Shown here one piece after another: positions 23,802-55,182 of a stretch of 64,000 nucleotides of DNA (the stretch's first letter is position 1; the number at the start of each line of letters is the position of its first letter). The DNA is taken from positions 95,046,001-95,110,000 of the forward strand of contig OZ360227.1 of the NCBI GenBank assembly GCA_977017645.1, given 5' to 3'. Under the pieces are notes generated by a model. That model was not told where the DNA came from, ran no database searches, and saw only the letters and a list, made by a program, of their open reading frames with translations. Source of the stretch: Torpedo marmorata. Taxonomy: Eukaryota. The position numbers were made by a program, and so were the translations under genes.

Positions 23802-25173
23802 TTTTTTGTTGTTGTTTTTTTAAAATTTTATTTAAATTTTAAAATCACAAAATACATAGATCAAAAATAATATATCATTCCAAATACATGTGATATATTT
23901 CCTCCCTCCCTCCCACCCTCCCCTCCCCAACCCCCCCTACCACTACTCTAAAGAAAAAAAATAAAAATAAAAACAAAAAGAAAAAAAAAAGAATAAAAGG
24001 AAAAAAGTTGAATAATAAAGAATTAAAGTGAGGAGAAAACAAATTACAAACTAATTCTATTTATATATTGGAGGTTAATTTCGCCAGCGGAGCCGACTTC
24101 CAGAGAATTAATTCATACCCATAATTCTCACATATGGGCTCCAAATTTTCAAAAAGAAATGATATTTATTACGTAGATTATACGTAATCTTTTCTAATGG
24201 TATACATGAACATAATTCTGCATGCAATCTATCTAAATTCAAATCTAAATCTGATTTCCAAGTAATAGCAATACATTTTTTTGAAACCGCTAAAACAATT
24301 CGTAAAAATTCTATTTGATACATATTTAATCTATTTCTAATACTAAATTTTTTAATATCTCCAAATAAAAATAACATAGGATCCATTGGAAACATAATAT
24401 TAAAAATTCTATCTAAAATTTTTTTAACTTTAGACCAAAAATCCTTAATTTTAGGACATAACCATGTTGAATGAACAAAAGAATCAATTTCATCCTTGCA
24501 TCTAAAACACATATCTGATAATGCCGGATTGAATTTCTTTAATTTTTTAGGTGTTAAATATAGTTGATGAAAAAAATTATATTGCACTAATCTATACCTA
24601 ACATTAATAATTTTAGTCATACTCAATTTACATAAATCTTTCCAATGTTTTTCATCTATATTAATATTTAAATCTGATTCCCATTTTAATCTTGATTTAT
24701 GGAATCCTACTTTAGGCATTTTTATCTGAAGTAATTTATACATTTGTGATATAAATTTATTAACATTTCCATTAGTAATTAATAATTCTAATCCATCCTG
24801 TCTTGGAGCTATTAATTGATTCCCCAATTTCTCAACTAAAAATCCTTTAACCTGATAATAAGCTAAAATTGTATTATCTAATATTCCAAATTTTTCTTTC
24901 AATCTAGAAAATATAACAAATCTTCCAGCCTCAAAACAATCTTTAATCTTCTTAATTCCTTTTTGAAACCATATTTTTAAAAATTGATTATCAATAGAAA
25001 ATGGTAAAAATAAATTTTGATACAGTGGCATATTTGGAGATAATGACCCTTTTCGTCCTATCTCATTATCTAATTGTGTCCAAATTTCCAGCAAATGTTT
25101 AATAATCGGTGAATTTTTCTTTTTAACTAATAATAATTTAGAATTCCACTTATAAATAATATCTTCTTTATAT
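23802..25173 (-). mobile_element. 5'-truncated L1 inserted in the CR1
   Basis: 328-aa ORF2 C-terminus with CFRC...H..W.C zinc motif and a poly(A) tail. 16-bp TSD AAAGGTCATACATGTT at 23786-23801 and 25174-25189. Confidence 0.95.
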
Positions 25174-27956
25174 AAAGGTCATACATGTTAAATGGTAGAC
25201 AATTGAGAAGTGTAGTAAAACAGAGGGATTTAGGAATTCTGGTACATAATTCCCTGAAAGTTGAGTCACACGTAGATAGGGTGGTGAAGAAAGCATTTGG
25301 TATGTTGGCTTTCATAAATCAGAGTATTGAATATAGGAGTTGGGATGTCATGTTGAAGTTGTATAAGGCATTGGTGAGGCCAAATTTGGAATATTGTGTG
25401 CAGTTTTGGTCGCCGAATTACAGGAAGGATATAAACAGAATAGAGAGAGTGCAGAGGAGATTTACAAGAATGTTGCCTGGGTTTCTGGGTTTGAGTTATA
25501 GGGAAAGGTTTAACAGGCTGGGACTTTATTACCTGGAGCGTAGAAGGTTGAGGGGTGATTTGATAGAGGTATTTAAAAATTATGAAGGGGAAAGATAGTC
25601 AATGTGGACAGGCTTTTTCCATTGAGAGAGGGGAAGATTCAAACAAGGGGACATGGATTGAGATTGAAGGGGGAAAACTTTAGAGGAAACATGAGGGGGA
25701 ATTTCTTCACTCAGAGGGTGGTAGGAGGGTGGAACGAGCTTCCGGCCGAAGTGGTAGATGCAGGTTCAATTTTAATGTTTAAGGAAAAGTTGGATAGGTA
25801 TATGGACGAGAGAGGTGTGGAGGGTTATGGGCCGGGTGCGGGTCAGTGGGACTAGGTGGGAGAATATGTTCGGCATGGACAAGAAGGGCCAAACTGGCCT
25901 GTTTCTGTGCTGTAAATGTTATATGGTTAAAGATTATAAATCTTCTCTATCATTTTTAATTCCAAATCTTGAGGGAGTTTTAATACCAAGGAATTTAAAA
26001 CGTTCCTAATCTGTAAATGTTTAAAAAAAATTATGTTTAGTTATTTTAAATTTAGAAGATAATTGTTCAAAAGAGGCCAAATTTTGGTCAATAAAGAGAT
26101 CTTGGAAAGATTGGATACCATACTCTGAACCATTTGCAAAAACCAAAATCTTGTCCTGAAGGTTTTATAAAAAAAAAATGAATTAGCTAAAAGGGGACTG
26201 ATTAATAAAAATCTATGGCATCCAAAATGTTTTCTAAATTGAAACCAAATCCTCAATGTATGTTTAACAACAAAATTATCAGTTAATTTAGAAGCAGAAA
26301 AGGGTAATAGTGCTCCAACTATAGAAATGAGGGAATACTTCTTGGTAGAATCAATTTCCAAATTAATCCAACTGGCAACATCCTGTCCTTATGATGAACC
26401 CAAAAATTAACATATCTAATATTAGCTGCCCAATAATATAATCTAAAATTAGGCAACGCCAATCCTTTTTTAGGATTTTGAAGGAAAGTTTTATTAAGAT
26501 GAGGGTGTTTATTTCTCCAGACAAAGAAATAGAATCGAGCAAATCAAAAAAGGTTTTGGGAACAAAGACAGGTACAGCTTGAAAAATATATAGGAACTTA
26601 GGCAGGATATTCATCTTAATAACCTCCTTTTCTTGCCCTATTTGGAATAATTAAGTCAGCTGATTTAAAGTTGTCTAGGCTACAATCTCATGTAGTTGCC
26701 TTTGCTCTCCTTATTGCCAGAAGAGCTATACTTACGAGATGGAAGGATGCTGTCCCTCCTACACATACTCAATGGTTATCTGATGTAATGGCATGCTTGA
26801 CTCTGGGTGGGGGGGGGAATTAGATGCTCTACTGATGTAATGAACCTTAATTTTCTAAATTTATGGGGTCCTTTCCTTAATTATTTTCAGAATTTATAAG
26901 ATTATTGGATCCCATTTTATGGTTTGGTTGTCCTTTCATGCATTAATGGAACATATATGTTTAATCATAACTTCACAAGGGAGGGGTTAGATTATTAGTA
27001 GTTTTTGTTTTATATACATTTTGTTTTTTTATATTCATAGGTTGTTTACAGCTATTTGTTAATATACATTTACTTTGTTGGATATATATTGTTATTACCT
27101 ATGTATGAGTGTGTATATGCATATATATATTGGAAAGAGGAAGCATTTTATGGTAGAAACTTGAAATTCTTGGGAATAGTAATCAGCAATTGATTGCTTA
27201 ATTTTTAATGTGAATTGATTTTTGAATAAAAGGTGATGTGCAATGTGAAGCAATGGTCAATATATAGAATTGGGTTATCTGCAATCTCATTGAATGGCAT
27301 AATAGTCTCGAGAGGTTAAATGACCTGCTTTTGTTGTCTATTTTGTATGGAATAGCTTATTGCTTGAGGGGTTTTCAATAAGTGGGAGAGAACTAAAATT
27401 GCCAAAATTCATTGACGTGCACCAAGAACTTACTTTTTGGAAAGATGGAAAGCATAGAGTACTTTTCTATGACTAGTGATAATTATGCTCTTTACACTCT
27501 TCTGATTCTGTATGGTATTAACCTGTAGGTGCTTTTCCTCACAAATTGTTTGAAAGCTGACATGATAGGAAAGCCAGTACAAATTATTCGCAGCAGCCAG
27601 TGTCCTTCCTGGGAAAGCTGACTACACTTGTTCCTTTTTTTTTTAAAAAGTGTTTTTATGTTTTTAGCTTAAAGATTTATTTTAAGGTCACCATCTGCTT
27701 TGGACTGCTTTCAACTTAATGTTTTGATTAATTTTTTGATGAATTTTTTTAAAGAAAATTTGTATAGCATTTACAGGCAAGAATCTGAAAATGGAGGTTT
27801 TGCTCCATGTTATTCAAAGGAAGAAAGAAAAACTTTGAAAAATGTCGACTAAGTTTGCAAATCAGAATTAGATGACCTCACAAATACATTAACAGATCTA
27901 GGTGCACATAGCCAGGTTCTGGAAGTGCTCTGTAGTTGATCTGGGACTACTGATTA

Positions 27957-30900
27957 CACTGAACAATGAAGGCTTTGCTTCCTGAACACTTTTGGGTGTA
28001 TTTTATAGATTTTGGGCTACTGATCACGAAAATCACCTTAAAATTTTCTATCACGTACAGTTTTTTTCAGATATAATCTAACTTCCAAACTATATCCAGG
28101 TGATTGCCAACGAGCTTCAAGCATACAAAACCATGAAGTGCAATATGTCATTGAAAATTCATTTTCTGCATTCACACTTGGACTTCTTACCTGCTGATCT
28201 TGGTGAAAGGTTTCACCAGGACATTGCAACCATGAAAAAGCGGTATCAGGGTGTTATAAATTCAAACCAGCAACGACAGAAGACGCAATGCAAAAGGGGT
28301 AAAATTGAAATTTATATTTATTAAAGACAATTAAACATATAATTTCACAACAATTTTACCCCTTTTGCATTGCGTCTTCTGTCGTTGCTGGCTTGAATTT
28401 GTAACAAAATTGGGGGCTCGTCCTTGGGATTTGAATTAAAAAATCCATCTTGGTAATTGAAGGAATCCCAGTCTGGTTTAAGACATTCCTTTTGTAAAGC
28501 TAATTAAAAGCTAGTGTGTGTGTAACGAAAAACCAGCAACAATGGATGTAGGAAAATTTTTGGAATCACCTGAACCTGATACTTTAAAAAAGGCGAAAAA
28601 GGAACAGTTAGTGGCTATAGCAACAGAGTTGGGCATTGCTTCTGTAAAACCATTTATGAAAAAGGCAGAGATTGGGAGAAAAATTATCAAATACTATATA
28701 AAAGAAAAAAAGTTTGAGGCGAGCGTGTTGGAGCAGTTTCAAAAGGGTAAACCTTCTGAAAACATACAGTTGGAACTAAAGAAATTGGAATTGGAGGCAG
28801 CCAGGGAACAAAAGAAATTAGACACGGAATTGGAACAAAAGAAATTAGACACGGAATTGGAACAAAAGAGATACGAGAACGATGAGAAAAATAGGAGATA
28901 TGAGCTGGAAAAGATGAGGTTGGAAAATGAGAGGAGACAAGAAGAGCACCAAGATCAAATTTGTCATCCTGCTGAGGGGTTTTTGACTAGTAGAGAAGTT
29001 AGGTTGGTTCCTCCATTTGAGGAGGCAGAAATAGATAAGTACTTCCAGCATTTTGAGAAGGTGGCTGTGAAATTAAAATGGCCACAAGACCAATGGTCTC
29101 TTATGTTACAAAGTGTAATAAAAGGAAAAGCCCAGCAAGCTTATTCTATTCTTACCACGGAGCAAGCTGCTGATTATGAAATGGTGAAAAAGGCTATACT
29201 CCAGGCTTGAGTTAGTACCAGAGGCTTATAGACAGAAGTTCAGAAATTTAAAAAGATCAGCAACCCAATCTTACACAGAGTTTGCCTATGAAAAGGTTGT
29301 GTTTTGACCGGTGGTGCACATCTAAGGCGGTAAACAATGATTACAATCAATTGAGCGAATTGATAATAATCGAGGAGATTAAAAGGTGTGTTCCTGAGGA
29401 TATTACGGCACACTTAGATGAAAAGGAGGTGAAAACTTGGCAAAATTCAGCTAATTTAGCAGATGAATATGCTTTAACCCACAAGCCTAAGATGACGTCA
29501 GGCAGAATTTTCCAAAAGGTCACTAGATAATCCCAAGCAAGTGAAAAGTAAATTTGGAAGTGGTGTTAAGGAAAGGGATGAAGGAAAGTGGAAAAGGGAA
29601 AACCCTTCGGGTCCCATTTGTAGGAAGGCTGGTCATATGCTAGCAAGTTGTCCAGTGTTGAAAAAGAAGAGAGAAAAGGATGCAACACCTAATGCTTGTA
29701 TTCAGAGTGAGAAGAGGCATAACACTCAGGAAGGAGATAAATTTACTGACAAAGTTAGATGTATTTAAACCTTTTGTGACTGATGGTTTTGTTTCAGTTA
29801 AGGCAGGATCAAAACAAGTTCCAGTGAAAATCTTGTGAGATACTGGAGCTGCTCAGTCACTTGTGTTAGATAGTGTCTTGGAATTTTGTGAAGCTACTGA
29901 CACCGGTGACATAAATTTAATTAAAGGAATTGGGGGTGATGTTGAGTCCATTCCTTTGCACAAAATAGTGTTGGACTCAGACTTGGTGGAAGGACCTGTT
30001 ATAATAGGAGTGAGATCAGAGTTGCCAGTAGAAGGAGTCTCACTGTTGCTTGGCAATGACTTGGCCAAGGGTAAAGTAGTTCCTGCAGTGCAAATGACTA
30101 CTAAGCCAGTCATTGATAAGTCAGAGAAAGACTCTGATATTTATCTGGCATGTGCCATAACCAGGGCCATGTCTAAGTAAAATGTCACTGTAGAAAAGGC
30201 AGGGGAAAATAACTTGGTGAAAGAAAAAGTCAGTGATAATCAAGAACACCTGGAAAAGGTTGAGCAATCTCCTGTGTTACACCCATCCACTGATAAGACA
30301 CCTAAAGGCACAGATTTGTCACTATCCCGACAGGAGCTAATAGCAAGGCAAAAGGACGATCCTGATCTTGCTGAGGTGAGGGATAAGGTTCTCTCTGAAG
30401 AGGAGATTAAAAAGGTGCCAGTGGGTTATTATGGAAAAGATGGGGTGTTGATGAGAAAGTGGAGACCATGTGATGTTCCTGCCAATGAATAATGGGCAGT
30501 AGTGCAGCAGGTTGTGATCCCTAAAGTATATAGGGATACAATAATAACTTTGGCTCATAGTACACCCTTAGGTGGTCACCTTGGGGGTGAAGAAAACTAT
30601 AAGGAAGATAATGAAACAATTTTATTGGCCCAGTTTGAGAAGGGAGGTTGTAAGCTTTTGCCGGGCCTGTCACACTTGTCAGGTGGTGGGTAAACCTAAT
30701 CAGGGTCCCCCGGTGGCACCCTTGCAACCTATCCCTGCTTTCAGTGAGCCTTTTTCGAGAGTAATTGTGGACTCTGTTGGCCCATTGCCCAAAACCAAAG
30801 CGGGGAATGAGTATTTGTTAACAATTATGTGTGCAGCCACCAGATTTCCAGAGGCCATTCCTCTGAGAAACATTAAAGCAAAGTCAATTGTAAAGGCTAT

Positions 30901-33733
30901 GGTAAAGTTTTTCACCTTTGTAGGTTTGCCAAGGGAAATTCAATCAGATCAGGGCAGTAATTTCATGTCAGGTGTTTTCCAACAAGTGGTTGATGGACTG
31001 GGAGTTAAACAGATTGTATACTCTGCGTACCATCAGAAAGTCAAGGGGCCTTGGAGAAGTTCAATTCGACTTTGAAAAACATGATTAGAACCTATTGTTG
31101 TGAGAAGGAAAAGGATTGGGATGAGGGGGTTCATTTGTTGTTATTTACAGTGAGGGAATCTGTCCAAGAATCACTTGGTTTTAGTCCATTCGAGTTAGTT
31201 TTCGGACATGAGGTGAGAGGTCCTTTAAGATTATTAAAAGAACAGTGGATTAATAGTGATGTGCATTTAAATCTGTTAGATTATGTTTCAAAATTTAAGG
31301 ATCGGTTGAATAGGGCTTGTGAGATGGCAAAGGAGAATTTAAAGGCCACTCAACAGAGAATGAAGGTTTGGTATGATCGAAAGGCCAAGATGAGAACTTT
31401 TAAACCTGGTGAGAACGTATTAGTTCTGTTTCCCATCCATTCAAACCCTCTTAGGGCTAGATTTTCAGGACCCTATAGAGTTCAGTCAAAAATTAATGAT
31501 GTCACCTATGTCATAGAAACACCTAATCGCAGACGAGACACACAGGTCTGTCATGTGAATATGATTAAGCCATATTTTGAACAGGTGTCGCAAAAAGGGA
31601 CTGAACATTTACCAGAGGTGCTGGTTATTGACAGGAGTAAGGAGGAGACGGATAAAACCAGTTTCAGAGAGGGTCATGGGACTGTTAATTCTCTGAGTTA
31701 TGTAGTAGGACAGGGGAAGTTGGCGCCAGTAGAGGCAAAGGTTGTGACTATTTCCGAGTTCCCTGTTCCAACTGGTAAGAAAACTCTGAGGAGGTTCCTG
31801 GGAATGATTGGCTACTACCGCAAGTTCTGTAAAAACTTTGCTGTTCTTGCGCTCCCTCTCACAAATTTGCTTAGAAAGAAAGAAAAATTTGTATGGTCGA
31901 CAGGTTGTCAGGAAGCATTTGTCAAATTGAAAGCATGTTATGCCACCAACCTGTGCTTAAGTCACCTACTTTAGAACAGCCCATTTTCTTTAGCCGTGGA
32001 TGCCAGCGATGAAGCTGTGGGCGCGGTGCTGTTACAGAAGAAGAATGAAGAGGACATTGAACTTCTTCGAGAAGTAGGATACCGGATGGTCAATGATCAT
32101 CAAAGGAATTATTCAAACATAGAAAAAGAGTTGTTGGCTCTACAACACTTTGATGTTTATATCTGTACAGCTCAAAAACCACTCATAGTGTATACTGACC
32201 TAATTGATTGGTTTTTCTTTGTAAAGTGAAAAATAAGAATTGACGGTTGTTGAATTGGAGTCTAATTTTGCAAGAATATGATTTGGTAATAACACATAAA
32301 AGGGAAAGATAATGTAATTGCTGATTGTGTTTCTAGATGCTAAACTTTGTAAATGAAAATAGTTAATATTTTATGTTTGTGGATGAACAGTGTGGGTTTT
32401 GTTTATATTGTAACACCTCAATTTCTAAAATTTTGTTTTTGCAGACCAAAATTTTCTTTGTGGGTGGGAGGTGTTATGGACCATGACTGACAGTTTGGAC
32501 TGCGGACGGTAAGCAGGAAGGATGAAGTTTTTTTTTTGGAGTACACACTGGGACCTGGTACTGAAAGAGTTAACTTGTCCTTGTATTTACCAGAGAGAGA
32601 CATCAGGGGGAGACAAACTGTGAAAGGATACTTTGGTGTGAAACTTTGGAAGAAGGAAGCTAGGGAAACTCTCTCTCTACTATAAGGCCTGAAGTGGAAA
32701 ACTAAATCAGTGGCAGTTTTGGAGTTGCAAAGGCGGGAGAACTCAGCAGGATCCAGGTTTGTGCATCCCAGAGAACAAGTGGGGAGAATAGCACAGAGTC
32801 TCTTGAATCAGAAAAGTCCAGGCTTGTGTATCCCAGGGGAAACGGCTGGGAGAAAAACAAGGCCTGATGATTCGGCAGAATCCTGAGTTGAGAACAGCTT
32901 TTGTGAGGAACCGGCTGTGAAATCCAAGTATACGCCTTAATCCAAAACGGATCTGAATTCGCAATCCTTGTGAAAACACAAAGGAAAGTCATCAGAGAAG
33001 AAAAGCAAGCCAAGTATTCGTAAGCATAAACAGTCATTGTCTCTCTCCAATGTTCATTAAGAAGTCCTTCTTGCCAGCACACAGAGCTGAATTTGGACCC
33101 TGAACATAGAGAGTGAATTTTTGTGGACTGTATTATTTTTTTTTTTTTGACTGACTTGTTTTTATGACTGACCTGGGGTTTTTGGGGAAAGTTTTTCCAT
33201 TTTTACATGAGGGTTGGGCACAGACTGTAATGGTCTGGGCTTTATATATACACACACACACCTTTTAGATAAGAATAGTGTTTATAGACGTTTATAGTGG
33301 GGTTAATTGTTGTGAAATTATATGTTTAATTGTCTTTAATAAATATAAATTTCACTTTTACCCCTTTTGCATTGTGTCTTCTGTCATTGCTGGTTTGAAT
33401 TTGTAACAAAATTGGGGGCTCGTCTGGGAACAACTGGAATCCATCAATGCTGGCTGACTATTGTTGGACTCTGACACGAGAGGCATCAGATGATGAGTAC
33501 AAACGAAAATCAGTGGCAAAACATTTTTAGGTCAGTTAAACTAACGCAATGTGTCAGCGTCATTATGCAATTAAACATGCTAAATTCAATAAAAGTTAAT
33601 TTAATGTTTCTCCAACTTATGTGATACAGCAAATCTGAAATTATCTTTGCGTTCAGCTTGAAGTTGTCTATCATAATCCCCAATTTTTTTTTTTCAGGAA
33701 GCAAGCCTTTTGAAAAAATTTTGTTGTCCAGTA
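27957..33733 (+). mobile_element. Chapaev3-like (CMC) DNA transposon, internally deleted, split by an LTR element
   Basis: Transposase C-terminus CNMSLKIHFLHSHLDF...ERFHQDIATMKKRYQG|NWNPSMLADYCWTL. Termini CACTGAACAA / TTGTCCAGTA share an inverted AAGGCTT(T)GCTTCCTGAA motif. 3-bp TTA TSD. Confidence 0.75.
28252..33430 (+). mobile_element. Gmr1-like gypsy LTR retrotransposon (gag/SCAN-CCHC, PR, INT, partial RT, RNase H), degraded
   Basis: tRNA-Pro PBS TGGGGGCTCGTCC at 28411, gag 28518-29768, PR DTGAAQS at about 29840. INT (HxxxxGGH..C..C, IVDSVGPLP, SDQGSNF, GPY) at 30500-31580 lies upstream of the RT C-terminus (RRFLGMIGYYRKFC) and RNase H (DASDEAVGAVL). PPT at about 32461-32471; 3' LTR 32472-33408 (TG..CA). 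Confidence 0.92.
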
Positions 33734-34336
33734 TTATAGTTGGCATCACCAAATTTATCATGTTTATCATGTTTTTTGTTAACTAATTTATAACGCTTCA
33801 AAATAACTCCCAGCGACCATAGCTAATCTGCAGTACAAAGTTGTACCAATGAAGTTACTGGTGGTCTTTGTCTTCATTCCACTATCATTTACCATGTTAC
33901 AGGAATGCATAGAATGATTTTGCTAGATTTCCTTTAAAGCTGCCACAGCAGACAGAGTAATGGCTGCAGCAGCAAGCTTGAGACCATACACCTGAATTGG
34001 GTCAAAAGGGAAGACAAAGGAAGGGTTGCAGTGTGAGAGTGTTTCCATAAGGAGGAGGTCTTAGCTTCACATGAAATAGTAGTGGTGAGAAAGGTCGTTT
34101 CAGCAGCTAGCCATTCAGTTATTGTTGCTCTATGAATTGGAGGCAAATAATATGGTAGAAGCAATCCTGCATGCACCTGACCATATTACAGTGGGTCCTG
34201 TATTTCTGTCATAGGATTGAGAAAGGTAGCAGGAATAAAGTTATTCCATTTGTGTCCTTGTGTAAACAAATGACATATTGGTTTATAGTAAAAACACAAA
34301 AATGCAGGTCTTGCATCGTCCACAGGAGGTAAAGAT

Positions 34337-37300
34337 TTATTTTCTCCCAAAAATAGACTTTATTCATAATAAATAAATTAATTACAAAAGGAAAACCGTT
34401 CCAAGTCTCTTCCCACCCTTAGTTTTGTATCCATCATGGTACATTGTTACATTAATTTCTATTTGCACCAATGCAACCACTGTGGCACTGTGTCGTTACT
34501 TCCCCTTTATGGGTTTCCGCTCAGACACAGCCCCTCAATGCCCAGTAACGGAAGGATTCCAGACTGTGATCCTTCCCACCAATGCCCTCGCGTTGGCTGC
34601 GCCAAGCCTCAGCACGTACTCCTACAGACTGGAATGTTCCAGTCGGCAGCATTTCCGCACCGACATCTGGGTTCTGAAAAACCAACAGGTTTCGGGCAGA
34701 CCAAAGTATATCTTTCACAGAGTTGATGATCTTCCAGCAATTCTGGATGTCTGACTCTGTGTGCGTCCCCGGGTGCAGCACATAAACCAGAGTGTCCTCT
34801 GTCACGCTGCTGCTAGGGAAGAACTGTGACAGGGGACCCTTACATCCTTCTCCACACACTTTGTGATTCTGCAGAGGTGGGTGACTCTCTCCACTCCTTG
34901 GCAGTCAGTGTGAATTATGGGTGATGTTCTGACTGGGAGGGCTCCTCTCACCGCCAGCCAGGCCAAGTCCGGGTGCTTGTTTGTGAGCATTGGTGATGAG
35001 GCATTCTGCCAGGTGACCTGGACGGTCTGCTTTAGGAACCACCCCACAGTGTCCATAGAGTCCTCGTCTCTCAGTGTCTGCAGGATGTTCTGTGCTAACC
35101 ACTGCCTGATGGCTTTGTGGTCAAAGGCATTTGTCTGGAAAAACTTTTCCACGAAGGAAAGATGATGTGGCAAAGTCCAGCTGACTGGGACATTGGGGCC
35201 AGGCTCATCCTTCGCAACCCCTGGGACAGATAGAACCTCAGCACATAGCCGCACTTGATGCTTGTACTTTGATTCCATGCACAGCCTGATGCATCCACAC
35301 AGGTGGTCATCAGGATGAGGGCCATGCTGGGTACACTCTTGTCGCATTGTCTCGCGACTTGTATGTGGTGACCCTTTGGACCCTTGCCATTGTCACGGTC
35401 GCATATTTACCTTCGTCGGGAGCAGTGCCGGCTGCTGATGACGTAAGCGATGCGACGCGCGTCAGTAATAGCGCACATGTGCGGGTGTGTTAAGCGTCAG
35501 TATATGGGTGATGAATCTCAGATGCAGGAGGGTGAGAGTGATAGGATCACCTGTGTGGCAGTGAGCAAATGAGAAGGTCAGAGGAGTTAAGCTGGGTGGT
35601 GTTTGGGGAGTTGAAGAATGCAATGTTGTGTCTAGTGAATAATAAAAGAAAGTCGACTTCATGGTGTGCTGAAAGAAATGAGTGAGAGTATTCTTTATTT
35701 GTTTGTAAGCTGTGGTAAATCAGTGCTGTTATAAGTGGTGACCCCGTGAGTTCACAGTACCTTCTAATTTAAAATGGATAGTGATGAGGATAAACCCCTG
35801 ACAGGAGCAGTTGGAGAGGTCAAACTAAAGATTCCACCCTTTTTATTAATAATGCACTAGCATGGTTGATGATCCTCGAAGCACGATTCTCTGCCCTCAT
35901 GGTGACGAGTCAGGAGACGAAGTACGGTTTACTTGTGGAGCGTCTTCCAGAGAAGATTGTCTGTGAAGTGGAGGATGTCTTAGTGGATCCGGATGGTAAT
36001 CTCCCATACGACATGCTTAAGGCGGCTATTCTGTGGCGTACTCAGCCATCGAGGGAGACTCGTATTGCCCAATTACTAGCTGATGACAGCCTAAGTGATA
36101 GGCAACCGTCACAGACGTTGAGGAGGTGGCGCAGGCTAGCTGGAACAGACCCTGTCGAAGGCGATTTTTGGAAACACAGGTTCCTTCGATGTTTACCTCG
36201 TCATGTTCAAGAGCATTTGGTGAGTGTCTTTCGAATGTCCACCCTTGATCAGTTGGCGGATCATGCCGACCTCGTTATGTCCATGACCTCTGCATTGAAG
36301 ATAGAAGGATTGGCTTCTTCCCCTAGTCAACAGGAGCAAATGGAACAACTGCTTACTGCGCCTTGAAGTGCCAGCACCTTATCAGTCGAAGGTAGCGCCA
36401 GCACCTTATCAATCGAAGATAACTGAGTTGGAGCAGAAAATGGCAGCACTGACTATGCAGGTCCAGGCTTTGGGCATGCAATGGAATTCCTTCCGTCGAC
36501 CTAGTTGGAATCGTGGTGGTCGAGGACGTGGTAGAAGCGACGGACGGCGTATTTGTTGGAAGCACCGGAGATTTTGTGCTGCTGCCTGGTCCTGTCAGCC
36601 ACCTTGCGACTTCTACAAATGGCAGCCGGTAAACGACCAGACCCAGCAGTAGAGGCAACTGCTGCCCATGGGCACGTCGGCTGCCGTCTTTTCCTCAAAG
36701 ACCGTCTCTCGGGTGTTCAATTTCTTGTCGATTCCGGTGCAGAGATTTCAGTGGTCCCTCCAACCACGGAGGAACACAGATGCCCCAATGTGTCATGTAT
36801 TCTTTCAGCTGCGAATGATTCTCATATTCAAACATATGACCAGAGGTCACTCGCGTTGGAATTTGGTCTCAAGAAACCTTTTTGGTGGGTTTTCACGTTT
36901 GCAAATGTGGCAATTTCCATTTTGGGAGCAGATTTCTTGTCACATTTTTCTTTGTTGGTGGATTTGAAAAATTGCGTCGTGGACCGCAGCTCTTGTATGC
37001 GAGTGAGCTGCATTTGTCGTCCCTCCAATGTCGTTAGCCACCTGACGAGCCTTCAACCTGGCTCCTGCCCTTTCCGAGCCTTGCACAAGTGTTTCCCTTG
37101 CCTAGTGACCCCGTCGTATAGTCATACAGACGTTAAACATACAGTAACCCACCATATAGAGACTCGGGGTCCTCCGGTGGGCTACGTGTGGGCTCATAGA
37201 TTATCCCTGGACCATGCATCGCCTGTCTTGCACAATCGTACGAGGTCAGGCCGAGCTGTCAGCCCTCTACACCGTTACATAGCGGGACAGTTCCCATCAT

Positions 37301-40300
37301 TCGCCTCCTTGCATGGCTCGGAGGCTGAGGGGGGACTGTCGCGGTCGCGTACTTGTCTTCATCGGGAGCGGTGCCGGCCGCCGCTGATGATGTAAGCGAT
37401 GTAATAGCGCGCATGCGTAGGTGTGTTAAGCGTCAGTATATGGGTGATGAATCTCAGATGCAGGAGGAGGAGAGTGAGAGCGTCAGGATCACCTGTGTGG
37501 CAGTGAACCAATGAGAAAGTCAGAGGAGTTTAGCTGGGTGGTGTTTGGGGAGGTGAAGAATGCAATCTTGTGTCCAAAAGAAAGTCGACTTCATGGTGTG
37601 CTGAAAGAAACGAGTGAGTGTATTCTTTGTTTGTAAGCTGTGGTAAATCAGTGCCGTTACACCATCTTGGATCCCCATGTGAACTAGAATACTGCTCTGG
37701 TGAGTGCCAGGGCAGAGGTGCGGGTGATGGGCCACACCTACATCCAGCAATACCGAGAGCACCTCGCACCTGATGACCAGGTTCTTCCTTGTTATTGAGA
37801 GGGATTGCTGTACCCACAGACCCAATTTCTGGTGACCTTTGCAATCCCCTCCGATCAATTTTCGTTATATGCCTCGGCCCCTTCAAACCAGATCCCCAAC
37901 TCTTCAGGTCAGATCTGACTGTGAAGGGGATGGTGGACTGGTCAGACCAGTTACCGAAGAGCATTGCCTCGCTCTTCTTCCGGTTTACCCTGGTTCAGAC
38001 TCAAAATTGCTGCAGATGCTGAACAGTCTGCGGGCTGATCATGTGACCAAATGGAAGATGGTGACGTCATCCATATACAGGGAGGCCTTGCCCTTAGTGC
38101 CATCACTGCCTGGTAACGTCATTCCTCTTGCCCTTGTCCTTCCTGATGGATTCAGAAAAGGGCTCTTTGCAGCACACAATTAAGACTGGAGAGAGCAGGC
38201 AACTTTCCCTGACTCCAGATGATGGGAAAGCTATCTGTTTCCCACCCATTGATTTGGACTGTACTAGGGATGTCCATGTAGAGCAGTTTAATCTAATTTT
38301 GGATTCCCACCCCAAAACCCATTTTGGAGAGCAACATCCATCATGTACATGCGTTGAAAACCTTATCCTGGTCTAAGATGACCAGGCAGGTGTCCACCTC
38401 CCTGTCTTGAATGTAGGTGATGATATTTCTGAGCCATGTACAACTCAGCTGGTAAGCCATGTCTTCCGGGAGTTTTACTTGACTGAAATGAACGGATGGA
38501 GTCCTTCTGCTTCCCTGGGTAATTGGCTGGTCCATACTCTCCTGCTTGCTGTCATCTAAGAGCTCTATGATAGAGGACAGGAAGTTTTGGGTGGCCATTC
38601 TGTCAGTGTCCTTAGTGTGCAGTTTGGCATAAAATGATCATCCGTATGCCTGTCTGTGAGGATGTGACTGAGCCATCCTCTTCCTTAAGGCTCCCTCAGT
38701 GAACTTTTTGGAAGAAGCGTGAGCATGTCTCATTCTGCTCCACTGCGATCGGAAGATGATCTTGGAGTTCCTCTCTCACATCCACCCCTCTTGACTGCAG
38801 AAGGAGGAGGTGCAGCAGGTCAGTCTGGAGTTGGTTCAGTTCCCTGCAGGGTTGCTGAGGATAAAGAACCTCTTAATGTTCTCCTTGGTTGCTTTGCACC
38901 AGTTCACTGGGGAGTCAAAGAAGGGTTTCATGGTTCTCCAACCAGCATATTCCTTCTTTAGTTCCTCTACGTTATCTGGGTTCAGCAACATCACTTTCCC
39001 CTGCCCACCTCCTGGTCTTCCTGTAGGTGACAGGAGGTGCGAAAGAGGCAGTGGTCAGGGAAGAATGTGACGACAGTGGTTCTGACGTTGTTGGCCTTTG
39101 ACACGAAGAGGATGTCTATCCGAATTCGGATTGAGCTATCTGATCTCGACCAGTTGGGCTGTGGCTATGCTCCACCTGCAGGGTTGCTGAAGGTGTAACA
39201 CAGCTGTGCATCCTTTACTGTCAGGAGTCTGGAGCATCTGTCCATTCTGCTGTCAGCACTGCTGGATCATCCAGCTGCATCGATGATGCAGTTGAAGTCA
39301 CCGGCCTGGATGTTGCCAGCAACTGGGAGAGCTGCTGGAAGATGACCAGCCTCTCAGTCCGGACGGGTGAGGTGTACACATTGATCAGCTGGAGCAGTGT
39401 GTCACAGTGCTTCAGATCTACCACGAGGAAATGACCCCAACCACGTCGTTAACTTGGGTGATTACAAAGTTGTCTCGCTGCAGCAAGTTGCCCAGACTGG
39501 ATGCGCGAAAATCGTTCAACCCCCCCCCCCCCCCCCCGACCCTACAAACAACCCATGAGCCACCATTGCAACCACTTCTGATAGTTCCAGAGGTGTGGCA
39601 GCCCACAATCCTGCATGAAAATCACATCCGCCTTTACTTTGGCGATGTATTGCAAGACATTTACACATCATGCAGTGCATTTGATACTGCACATGTTGAG
39701 GGTTGCTATGTTAATCTCCGTTGTTGTTTATTGAAGTATCCAGTTCTCAGTCCATGCAGTCCATTGTCAATCAGCCTGAGCTCTCATGCCCACCGCTTTG
39801 GTAAACTGTAGCTCTGATTTCTGGCTCAGGAACGGGGGTTGATCTTCCTCTGGGAGTGGGGTCTCCTCGGGCGAAGCTGGTGGTGTCACTCAGGGTGGAT
39901 CTGGCTGTGCTCCTGCTTCTCTGTCTCCTGGCTGGCTTCTCCTTCTCCTGGGGGTGGGGGGATCGCCTCTGCGCTCTTCCTGTTCTCCTGGAGCTGGGGG
40001 GGGGGGGGGTGGGGTGGGCAATGGCTACTGCATTGCTCCTGGTCTCCCAGAGCTGAGGGGGGTTGCTGGTGCTGTACATCCCACAGTTGGGCTTACTAGT
40101 AACCCGTTGTCCTCCGTTCTTTCCCCTCTGCATTGGCGCTTCCTCTGCCTCCGTCCAATGCTCGTGCTGGCTTCATCCTCCCATGACGAGGTTGCTGGCT
40201 TTCATTTGTGCCTTGACCCTTTTCTTCCCACTGCTTGCAGTGTCAGTTTTCCGTTTCTTTGGTGAGTCTTTTTGGGTTTTCTTTTCTTCATCTGCCATCT

Positions 40301-54649: not shown

Positions 54650-54962
54650 CAAGCATACGCCTAAATCAGTGGTATACTGATCTGAACAGACAATCCTTAT
54701 GAACACCCAAGAAGGGGACGTCATCAGAGAAGAAAACAAGTATTTGTAAGCATAAACAGTCATGGTCTCTCTCCAACGTTCATTCAGAAGTACTTCTACC
54801 AGACTCAGAGCTGAAGTTGAAGCCTGAACTTAGAGTGAATTTTGTAGACTGTATTATCCTTTTTTTTGACTGACTTGTTTTTTATGACTGACCTGGGGTT
54901 TTTGGGGAAAGTTTTTCCATTTTTACATAAGGGTTGGGCACAGACTGTAATGGTCTGGGCTT

Positions 54963-55037
<75 letters not shown>

Positions 55038-55182
55038 TTTAGATAAGAATAGTGTTTATAGACGTTTATAGTGGGGTTAATTGTTGTGAAATTATATGTT
55101 TAATTGTGTTTAATAAATAGTAATTTCAATTTTACCCCTTTTGCATTGCGTCTTCTGTCGTTGCTGGTTTGATTTTGTAACA
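54650..55182 (+). mobile_element. 5'-truncated solo LTR of the Gmr1-like family
   Basis: Collinear with about 32925-33408 and ends ...TTGTAACA with no PBS after it. Confidence 0.9.
54966..55035. repeat. (AC)n microsatellite of about 35 units inside the solo LTR
   Basis: Directly visible perfect repeat. Confidence 0.98.

Follow-up and report, generated by a model that had tools for sequence, protein, structure and literature searches.

In HIV-1, minus-strand strong-stop DNA can fold with its 3' end on the hairpin of the R region (cTAR) and prime itself, with reverse transcriptase (RT) copying back over the strong-stop DNA; the relevant part of PMC6088434 presents this reaction as a dead end that is suppressed by NC and undetected in endogenous reactions. 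For HIV proviruses with asymmetric long terminal repeats (LTRs), part of PMC9278108 proposes intermolecular plus-strand transfer, and a section of PMC5041404 describes one-ended integrations of HIV and ASLV in which integrase joins one normal end and the host joins the bad one. The element considered here, a copy of an LTR retrotransposon, lies at 28252-33430 of a 64,000-nt stretch of Torpedo marmorata DNA (contig OZ360227.1, positions 95,046,001 to 95,110,000), hereafter the window. Its 5' LTR is absent, and a hairpin built from the final 104 nt of the LTR stands in its place. Such fold-back ends are a real and recurrent by-product of replication at low frequency, and the mechanism inferred below is well supported. 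The 3'-end folding and the copy-back would be the same as in HIV-1 cTAR self-priming, whereas here the product would have been rescued through a tRNA-copied tail and integrated in the germ line.

The left end of the element is an inverted R-U5 segment (28252-28355, reverse strand; LTR -1 to -104, counted back from the LTR end), which forms an inverted repeat of 104 nt with 33305-33408 at 96% identity and is flush at TG, the processed U5 end, facing outward. At CAATT (28351-28355) the sequence switches to a forward arm (28351-28406, forward strand; LTR -56 to -1). The resulting hairpin has arms of 56 nt (28252-28307 and 28351-28406, 96% identical) around a 43-nt loop (28308-28350, reverse strand), the antisense of an AT-rich R segment with the poly(A) signal. 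A preliminary description of this DNA, made from the sequence alone, had reported the missing 5' LTR and the fold-back, and both are confirmed. It had read the inverted LTR end as U5; R has to be included, since the signal AATAAA, at LTR -71, lies within the loop. It had also placed the switch at a CAATT microhomology, and the position stands, with CAATT now identified as the middle helix of a natural LTR stem. Behind the 3' LTR follow AAAT and an 18-nt tail (33409-33430, forward strand). The tail (33413-33430) is identical at 16/18 nt to the complement of a tRNA-Pro gene found with ARAGORN in the same genome, plus CCA, which bears out its earlier interpretation as a copy of the primer tRNA. 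The left primer binding site (PBS), which with its AAAT spacer occupies 28407-28430 (forward strand), is no tRNA copy but a variant of the tRNA-Pro PBS, 20 nt long, that belongs to the family.

The element sits in a repeat whose left part, a transposase C-terminal fragment, occupies 28082-28251 (forward strand) and whose right part resumes at 33431-33735 (forward strand). Judging by a motif, this host repeat may be Chapaev3, as the preliminary description labelled it; its 56-aa fragment in the window gave no Pfam match. Other copies of the repeat reveal the empty site: 22 of 24 are contiguous across the insertion point (19 read exactly TCAGGG/CAACTGG, the slash marking that point, and 3 have one substitution), and the remaining 2 are rearranged. 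Because these copies are contiguous across the junction, the insertion has neither a target site duplication (TSD) nor a deletion, as had been proposed.

Fold-back ends were found at 19 loci in the genome against 23,920 exact LTR-PBS junctions of the family, or about 0.08%, both counts being lower bounds. An exact junction pattern detected 13 of them (0 in the control), a looser pattern 4, a DNA search 1 and a survey of PBS tails 1. A broader pattern gave 623 matches, sister families included, and all 30 loci read among these were ordinary leaders. The other sampled copies of the family have a normal full 5' LTR. In a tree that comprises 67 rows, 12 of them fold-back copies and 55 normal ones, the label changes 11 times, against a mean of 11.2 after shuffling; this quick tree leaves 31 of 64 forks open and excludes L143 and 6 of 18 fold-back stretches with less than 600 of 890 nt covered. 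Given that three different helices served as switch points and that the copies scatter over the family tree, the fold-backs are repeated accidents and represent neither a lineage nor a replication route of the family. The earlier suggestion that the family might use an unusual route thus finds no support in the counts or in the tree, which shows no clustering. The family replicates conventionally, and the window copy is a dead fossil. Its first interpretation as a frozen aberrant cDNA is supported.

The switch points are confined to one structure. Fourteen of the 19 junctions lie at LTR -110, 2 at -104 (the window copy and C74) and 2 at -95, and 1 is loop-flipped; all fall on helices of a single natural stem spanning LTR -110 to -45. 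In the window this stem-loop occupies 33299-33364 (forward strand) of the 3' LTR, with AATAAA (33338) in its loop and its helices corresponding to the three switch points. The search patterns were based on the same stem, so the clustering is partly built in and fold-backs elsewhere are possible. The stem folds with a z-score of -2.7, 2 of 300 shuffles being equally low. When minus-strand strong-stop DNA is folded, its 3' end is paired if synthesis ends at -95 or -110, and the -110 fold also pairs the -104 helix. Within RNase H, the window copy has a 31-nt inversion (32060-32090) between the short inverted repeats CATTG and CAATG. This copy alone carries it; of 22 occurrences of the motif in the loci retrieved, 21 are oriented oppositely (overlapping loci may repeat). 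The inversion shows that loops flip, and the same kind of event may explain the loop-flipped hairpin of L205.

Insertion of these products was usually regular. Among the 14 fold-back copies in which the hairpin forms an end and both ends are readable (3 copies with a missing or damaged end and 2 with an internal hairpin being left out), 10 have a perfect 4-bp TSD: GTAC, ACGG, CTAT, ATGT, GTGG, GTAT, GTAG, CTGT, TAAG and ATAT. Because of these ten TSDs, we conclude that integrase normally accepts an inverted U5 end. The proposal that such cDNA was captured without integrase therefore finds no support as a general rule. The flush left end of the window copy, which lacks the spacer kept by unprocessed hairpins, also speaks against it; for the window copy taken alone, the proposal retains some force and is weighed below. 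The family as a whole prefers V-T-A-B at its 4-bp target (108 left and 44 right flanks). At the locus of L228 and L244 (G000:C11:248377560-248382700), one end is merely a 7-bp TGTAACA beside an inverted PBS and the TSD, ATAC, is perfect, so that a very short end seems to be enough for the family integrase. In the fold-back copy L143 (G000:C31:90391660-90401560), the right end is a second inversion, which ends in U3 inside a (GAAA)n run.

RT stops after copying 18 nt of the primer tRNA, at m1A58, and ends of that length were found on hairpins captured at other loci. L220 carries a hairpin inside a normally ended element (TSD CAAG), with the 5' spacer bases on one side and an exact 18-nt tRNA copy (PBS18) at the 3' side, primed at an internal ATCCCG. 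L145 (TSD GTAT) has a hairpin with an exact PBS18 primed at the same internal ATCCCG, and in the C40 copy (TSD CCGT) a partial U3 is joined to the unprocessed ATTT of a hairpin. The tRNA-copied 3' end is thus seen in L145 and L220 and the 5' spacer in L220 and C40; neither is visible on the hairpin of the window copy. Because these ends match strong-stop DNA after primer copying, we infer a free self-primed hairpin. The sequences of the hairpins add to this picture. In 4 of the 9 copies that have both a TSD and a right end in U5 (L062, L139, L140 and L204), the hairpin has non-CpG variants that are absent from the copy's own 3' LTR, as expected from two priming events. The evidence on copying of both arms from one molecule is divided: variants are common to both arms in L062, L139, L144 and L204, and the arms disagree at site -10 in L205 and L148.

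Tails like that of the window copy also occur elsewhere. The first 30 of 96 LTR-PBS matches without the normal leader base were read; 7, L230 among them, are joins at nt 17-18 to other, non-leader DNA and 23 are ordinary leaders or small variants. In L230 (G000:C11:267823300-267831775), a complete element with TSD GTAG, the PBS18 of the 3' LTR continues into an inverted U3, and in L228 the PBS18 behind an LTR was primed at the ATCCCG site used in L145 and L220. From L230 and L228 it follows that such tails existed in cDNA before insertion. L230 has two U3 ends with a perfect TSD, its 3' PBS tail having been primed on an LTR and U3 copied in reverse. In retroviral vectors, mispriming by plus-strand strong-stop DNA gives deletions and inversions, and the PBS18 ends at cryptic sites in L228, L230, L235 and L241 are of the same kind; we know of no hairpin decoy replacing a 5' LTR in those vectors. 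In L226 (G000:C11:89215300-89222640), an LTR with PBS18 is fused straight to the U5 end of an element in opposite orientation. L216, an LTR-PBS18 piece without TSD, was considered as a second zero-TSD case and set aside as merely a partial parallel: the host sequence picks up again 4 nt further along, via an overlap of 3 nt, and matches for 14 nt before it diverges. In the window copy, fold-back and right tail are both rare anomalies and yet stand together, which suggests, from a single pre-selected case, that they are coupled.

Self-primed minus-strand strong-stop DNA that served as a decoy during second-strand transfer probably explains the fold-back copies. RT would start on tRNA-Pro, copying U5 and then a portion of R, after which the free 3' end would fold onto the natural stem in R; the stem and the switch points are seen, and self-priming is the conjectured step. 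RT would next copy back across U5 and the spacer and on into the tRNA for 18 nt. Once the tRNA was removed, a hairpin would remain that has the spacer at its 5' end and a PBS tail at its 3' end; both of these ends are seen captured at other loci. An 18-nt primer pairing and PBS-mediated transfer belong to the retroviral scheme outlined in part of PMC6088434. The tail would mimic plus-strand strong-stop DNA, anneal to the PBS complement on a minus strand of full length and prime the plus strand, while the minus strand would open the hairpin and yield cDNA with a U5 end on each side. Integrase would usually insert this U5/U5 cDNA with the 4-bp TSD of the family, as is seen in the integrated copies. 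Since U3 is missing from such products, they would be expected to have no promoter and to be inactive from the moment of insertion. Second-strand transfer, which the preliminary description held to have failed, would most likely have been performed by the decoy. The asymmetric-LTR proviruses would share with this scheme the completion of cDNA by strong-stop DNA of another priming event and the integration of the product; the donor proposed in that portion of PMC9278108 is true plus-strand strong-stop DNA, and the LTRs remain direct repeats.

The window copy calls for one more step, since its right end kept the tRNA-copied tail. Either true plus-strand strong-stop DNA would have remained without transfer or the primer would have stayed in place; integrase would then have attached the flush left end, with the tailed end sealed in at the nick by host repair and no TSD produced. 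One-ended integration of this kind is somewhat favoured for this copy. A less likely reading, which still deserves serious consideration, is that the whole aberrant cDNA was end-joined into a break, with integrase at neither end. The site has no TSD and no deletion, its sequence AGGG is a poor match to the V-T-A-B profile and occurs in 0 of the 152 flanks, and L216 is likewise an LTR-PBS18 piece without TSD. The left end, however, is flush at TG, a feature of every sibling joined by integrase, whereas unprocessed hairpins such as C40 and L220 keep the spacer, and a genuine TSD, TAAG, scores as low in the family target profile as AGGG, at the 5th percentile.

For the fold-back copies in general, a template switch within a single molecule could produce the identical left-end sequence at the same stem: after the second transfer, the 3' end of the minus strand would jump at the stem onto its own displaced 5' end and copy U5 in the sense direction. 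It would suit the copies in which hairpin and 3' LTR do not differ (L061, L141, L147 and L202). We nevertheless consider it improbable, because it makes no free PBS18-ended hairpin, while L145 and L220 contain one and C40 has the 5' spacer. It also predicts a hairpin identical to the 3' LTR at birth, which 4 of the 9 copies contradict. Moreover, it consumes the strong-stop DNA of the plus strand and so leaves the right tail of the window copy unexplained, and it would not readily produce two double-stranded ends at once. Rearrangement after insertion, with head-to-head or tandem elements reduced by deletions and the right tail as the stump of a second tandem unit, is very unlikely. Tandem arrays do exist, one of them with the PBS variant TCTGGGAT (L066/L067; 1 of 59 loci), and the two bases before the host together with the host's CA spell AACA, an LTR end. 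The deletions, though, would have had to restore the host exactly and erase the TSD, and such a history can neither yield matching 4-bp TSDs around 10 fold-backs nor bring the switches of 19 loci to the same three points. The array itself (G000:C31:178732000-178751800) runs LTR-internal-LTR-internal-LTR and has an internal duplication in its first unit.

Two further readings are barely credible. Replication of the family or a sublineage through inverted termini, in the manner of DIRS or Ginger elements, would give products that resemble the observed elements with terminal inverted repeats and a TSD. It would have to be reconciled with a share of only about 0.08% of junctions, with the absence of clustering, with differing switch points and with the normal 5' LTR of other sampled copies. 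An assembly artefact from chimeric fold-back reads is conceivable insofar as the hairpin junction is not confirmed in reads. Among contigs from 4 public runs none spans the hairpin junction, and the right junction is likewise neither supported nor contradicted; the host join 28251-33431, that is, the empty site, is present in contigs from two public runs. Nineteen loci, their TSDs, mutually diverged arms and three recurrent switch points are hard to obtain from chimeric reads, and the eighteen further fold-back loci in different surroundings make an artefact unlikely.

Several observations weigh against decoy transfer or against one-ended integration of the window copy. When the DNA ends at -104, where the window copy itself switches, its 3' end is unpaired in the minimum-energy fold. 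The fold-back may have occurred either at the true strong stop or where RT paused. No TSD is present in 4 of the 14 copies: the window copy, L142, L144 and L148. For the last three, a search for a matching far end found none. The window site AGGG lies at the 5th percentile of the profile from the 152 flanks. The hairpin and the 3' LTR do not differ in L061, L141, L147 and L202, that is, in 4 of the 9 copies, and site -10 is variable, so that single-site differences are weak evidence. The two arms are discordant at this site in L205 and in L148 (the latter outside the set of 9), which pure intramolecular copying does not predict. In the window copy, three differences between arm and LTR fit later mutation of the 3' LTR and are uninformative about templates. 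The intermediates themselves are known indirectly, through integrated copies. Finally, the one-ended integrations reported in that section of PMC5041404 mostly show long duplications, deletions or truncation, whereas the window copy shows none of these and carries an extra PBS tail.

The remaining anatomy places the element among known retrotransposons. Interrupted by stops and frameshifts, gag (28542-29765) contains a SCAN domain at about 29280-29485 (PF02023, E 7e-7; 29.3 bits against a cut-off of 27). It is followed by a protease region (29790-30180) with a DTG motif in translation and no Pfam match, the cryptic priming site ATCCCG (30324-30329) used by the 18-nt PBS ends of L145, L220 and L228, and a frameshifted integrase (30572-31580) with H2C2, rve and p58-C/SH3 parts matched by Pfam. 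The C-terminal part of RT and RNase H come next (31672-32345), then a polypurine tract (32460-32471) and directly behind it the 3' LTR (32472-33408; 937 bp, TG...CA), all on the forward strand. In the Pfam matches the integrase (30572-31575) precedes RNase H (from 31975). About 760 bp of RT core is absent at about 31680 by comparison with fuller copies such as L065, in which it sits between integrase and RNase H. Many other family copies share this deletion (window 31672-31682), and RT-core-deleted copies form a non-autonomous subfamily, presumably mobilised in trans. Because of the order gag (SCAN), protease, integrase, RT C-terminus and RNase H, the element is assigned, on the basis of its domains, to the Gmr1-like group of Ty3/Gypsy as a copy with its RT core deleted. 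An integrase upstream of RT (part of PMC8220671) and a SCAN-related gag (part of PMC3424704) are traits of the Gmr1 clade, and both are present here; the window copy differs as an RT-deleted derivative without a 5' LTR. It lacks the two direct LTRs of a normal LTR-retrotransposon insertion and carries an rve integrase in place of the tyrosine recombinase of DIRS elements.

The PBS of the family (window 28411-28430 and many other loci) is hypervariable at nt 12-14, with insertions of 1-2 nt or changes, while its flanks are kept, including complementarity that continues to 23 nt of the tRNA; in one set of loci, 0 of 8 PBSs were a perfect 18-mer. The variability possibly reflects escape from silencing by tRNA fragments or primer pairing in a looped form. 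At 54650-55182 the window contains another LTR of the family, a partial one in which the (CA)n run is expanded and the U5 end is normal. Presumed LINE-like open reading frame fragments, and nearby a second fragment of presumed Gypsy-type gag/protease, are found at 24108-25855 and 35794-37395.

In the account of PMC2836005, Ginger1 and Ginger2 have TGTNR termini; their inverted termini measure 40-270 bp, their TSD has 4 bp and their integrase is of the Gypsy type. Ginger2 prefers RTATAY targets, and the origin of Ginger from Gypsy is called unclear. The fold-back products share the TGTNR inverted termini (about 95-110 bp in flip-form copies), the Gypsy integrase and, in siblings of the window copy, which itself has no TSD, the 4-bp TSD. 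Unlike Ginger elements, they retain gag, RNase H and a whole 3' LTR, form no clade of their own and show no sign of moving as DNA.

Our literature searches, in which older virology is thinly covered, returned no report of integrated self-primed strong-stop ends, and PMC11117352 and PMC12789967 contributed nothing decisive. The recurrence of the fold-backs and their mostly normal insertion suggest that a by-product regarded as a dead end in vitro can enter the germ line. Exact patterns yield a rough estimate of about 1 per 1,300 junctions, a countable in vivo rate for a side reaction studied mainly in the test tube, and a large genome becomes usable as a fossil record of errors in reverse transcription. 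The family integrase accepts pairs of U5 ends, and of U3 ends in L230, with a normal TSD. We put forward only tentatively the wider proposal that strong-stop DNA, once self-primed, serves repeatedly in vivo as a substrate through which an LTR retrotransposon becomes, within one replication cycle, an element that bears an integrase, has inverted termini and is flanked by a normal TSD. If true, such products would be expected in any very high-copy LTR family with an R hairpin near the RNA start. They would also offer a one-step route from Gypsy to Ginger-like DNA transposons, the transition termed unclear in that account (PMC2836005). The fold-back products in any case give a concrete and testable means by which an LTR element could acquire terminal inverted repeats.

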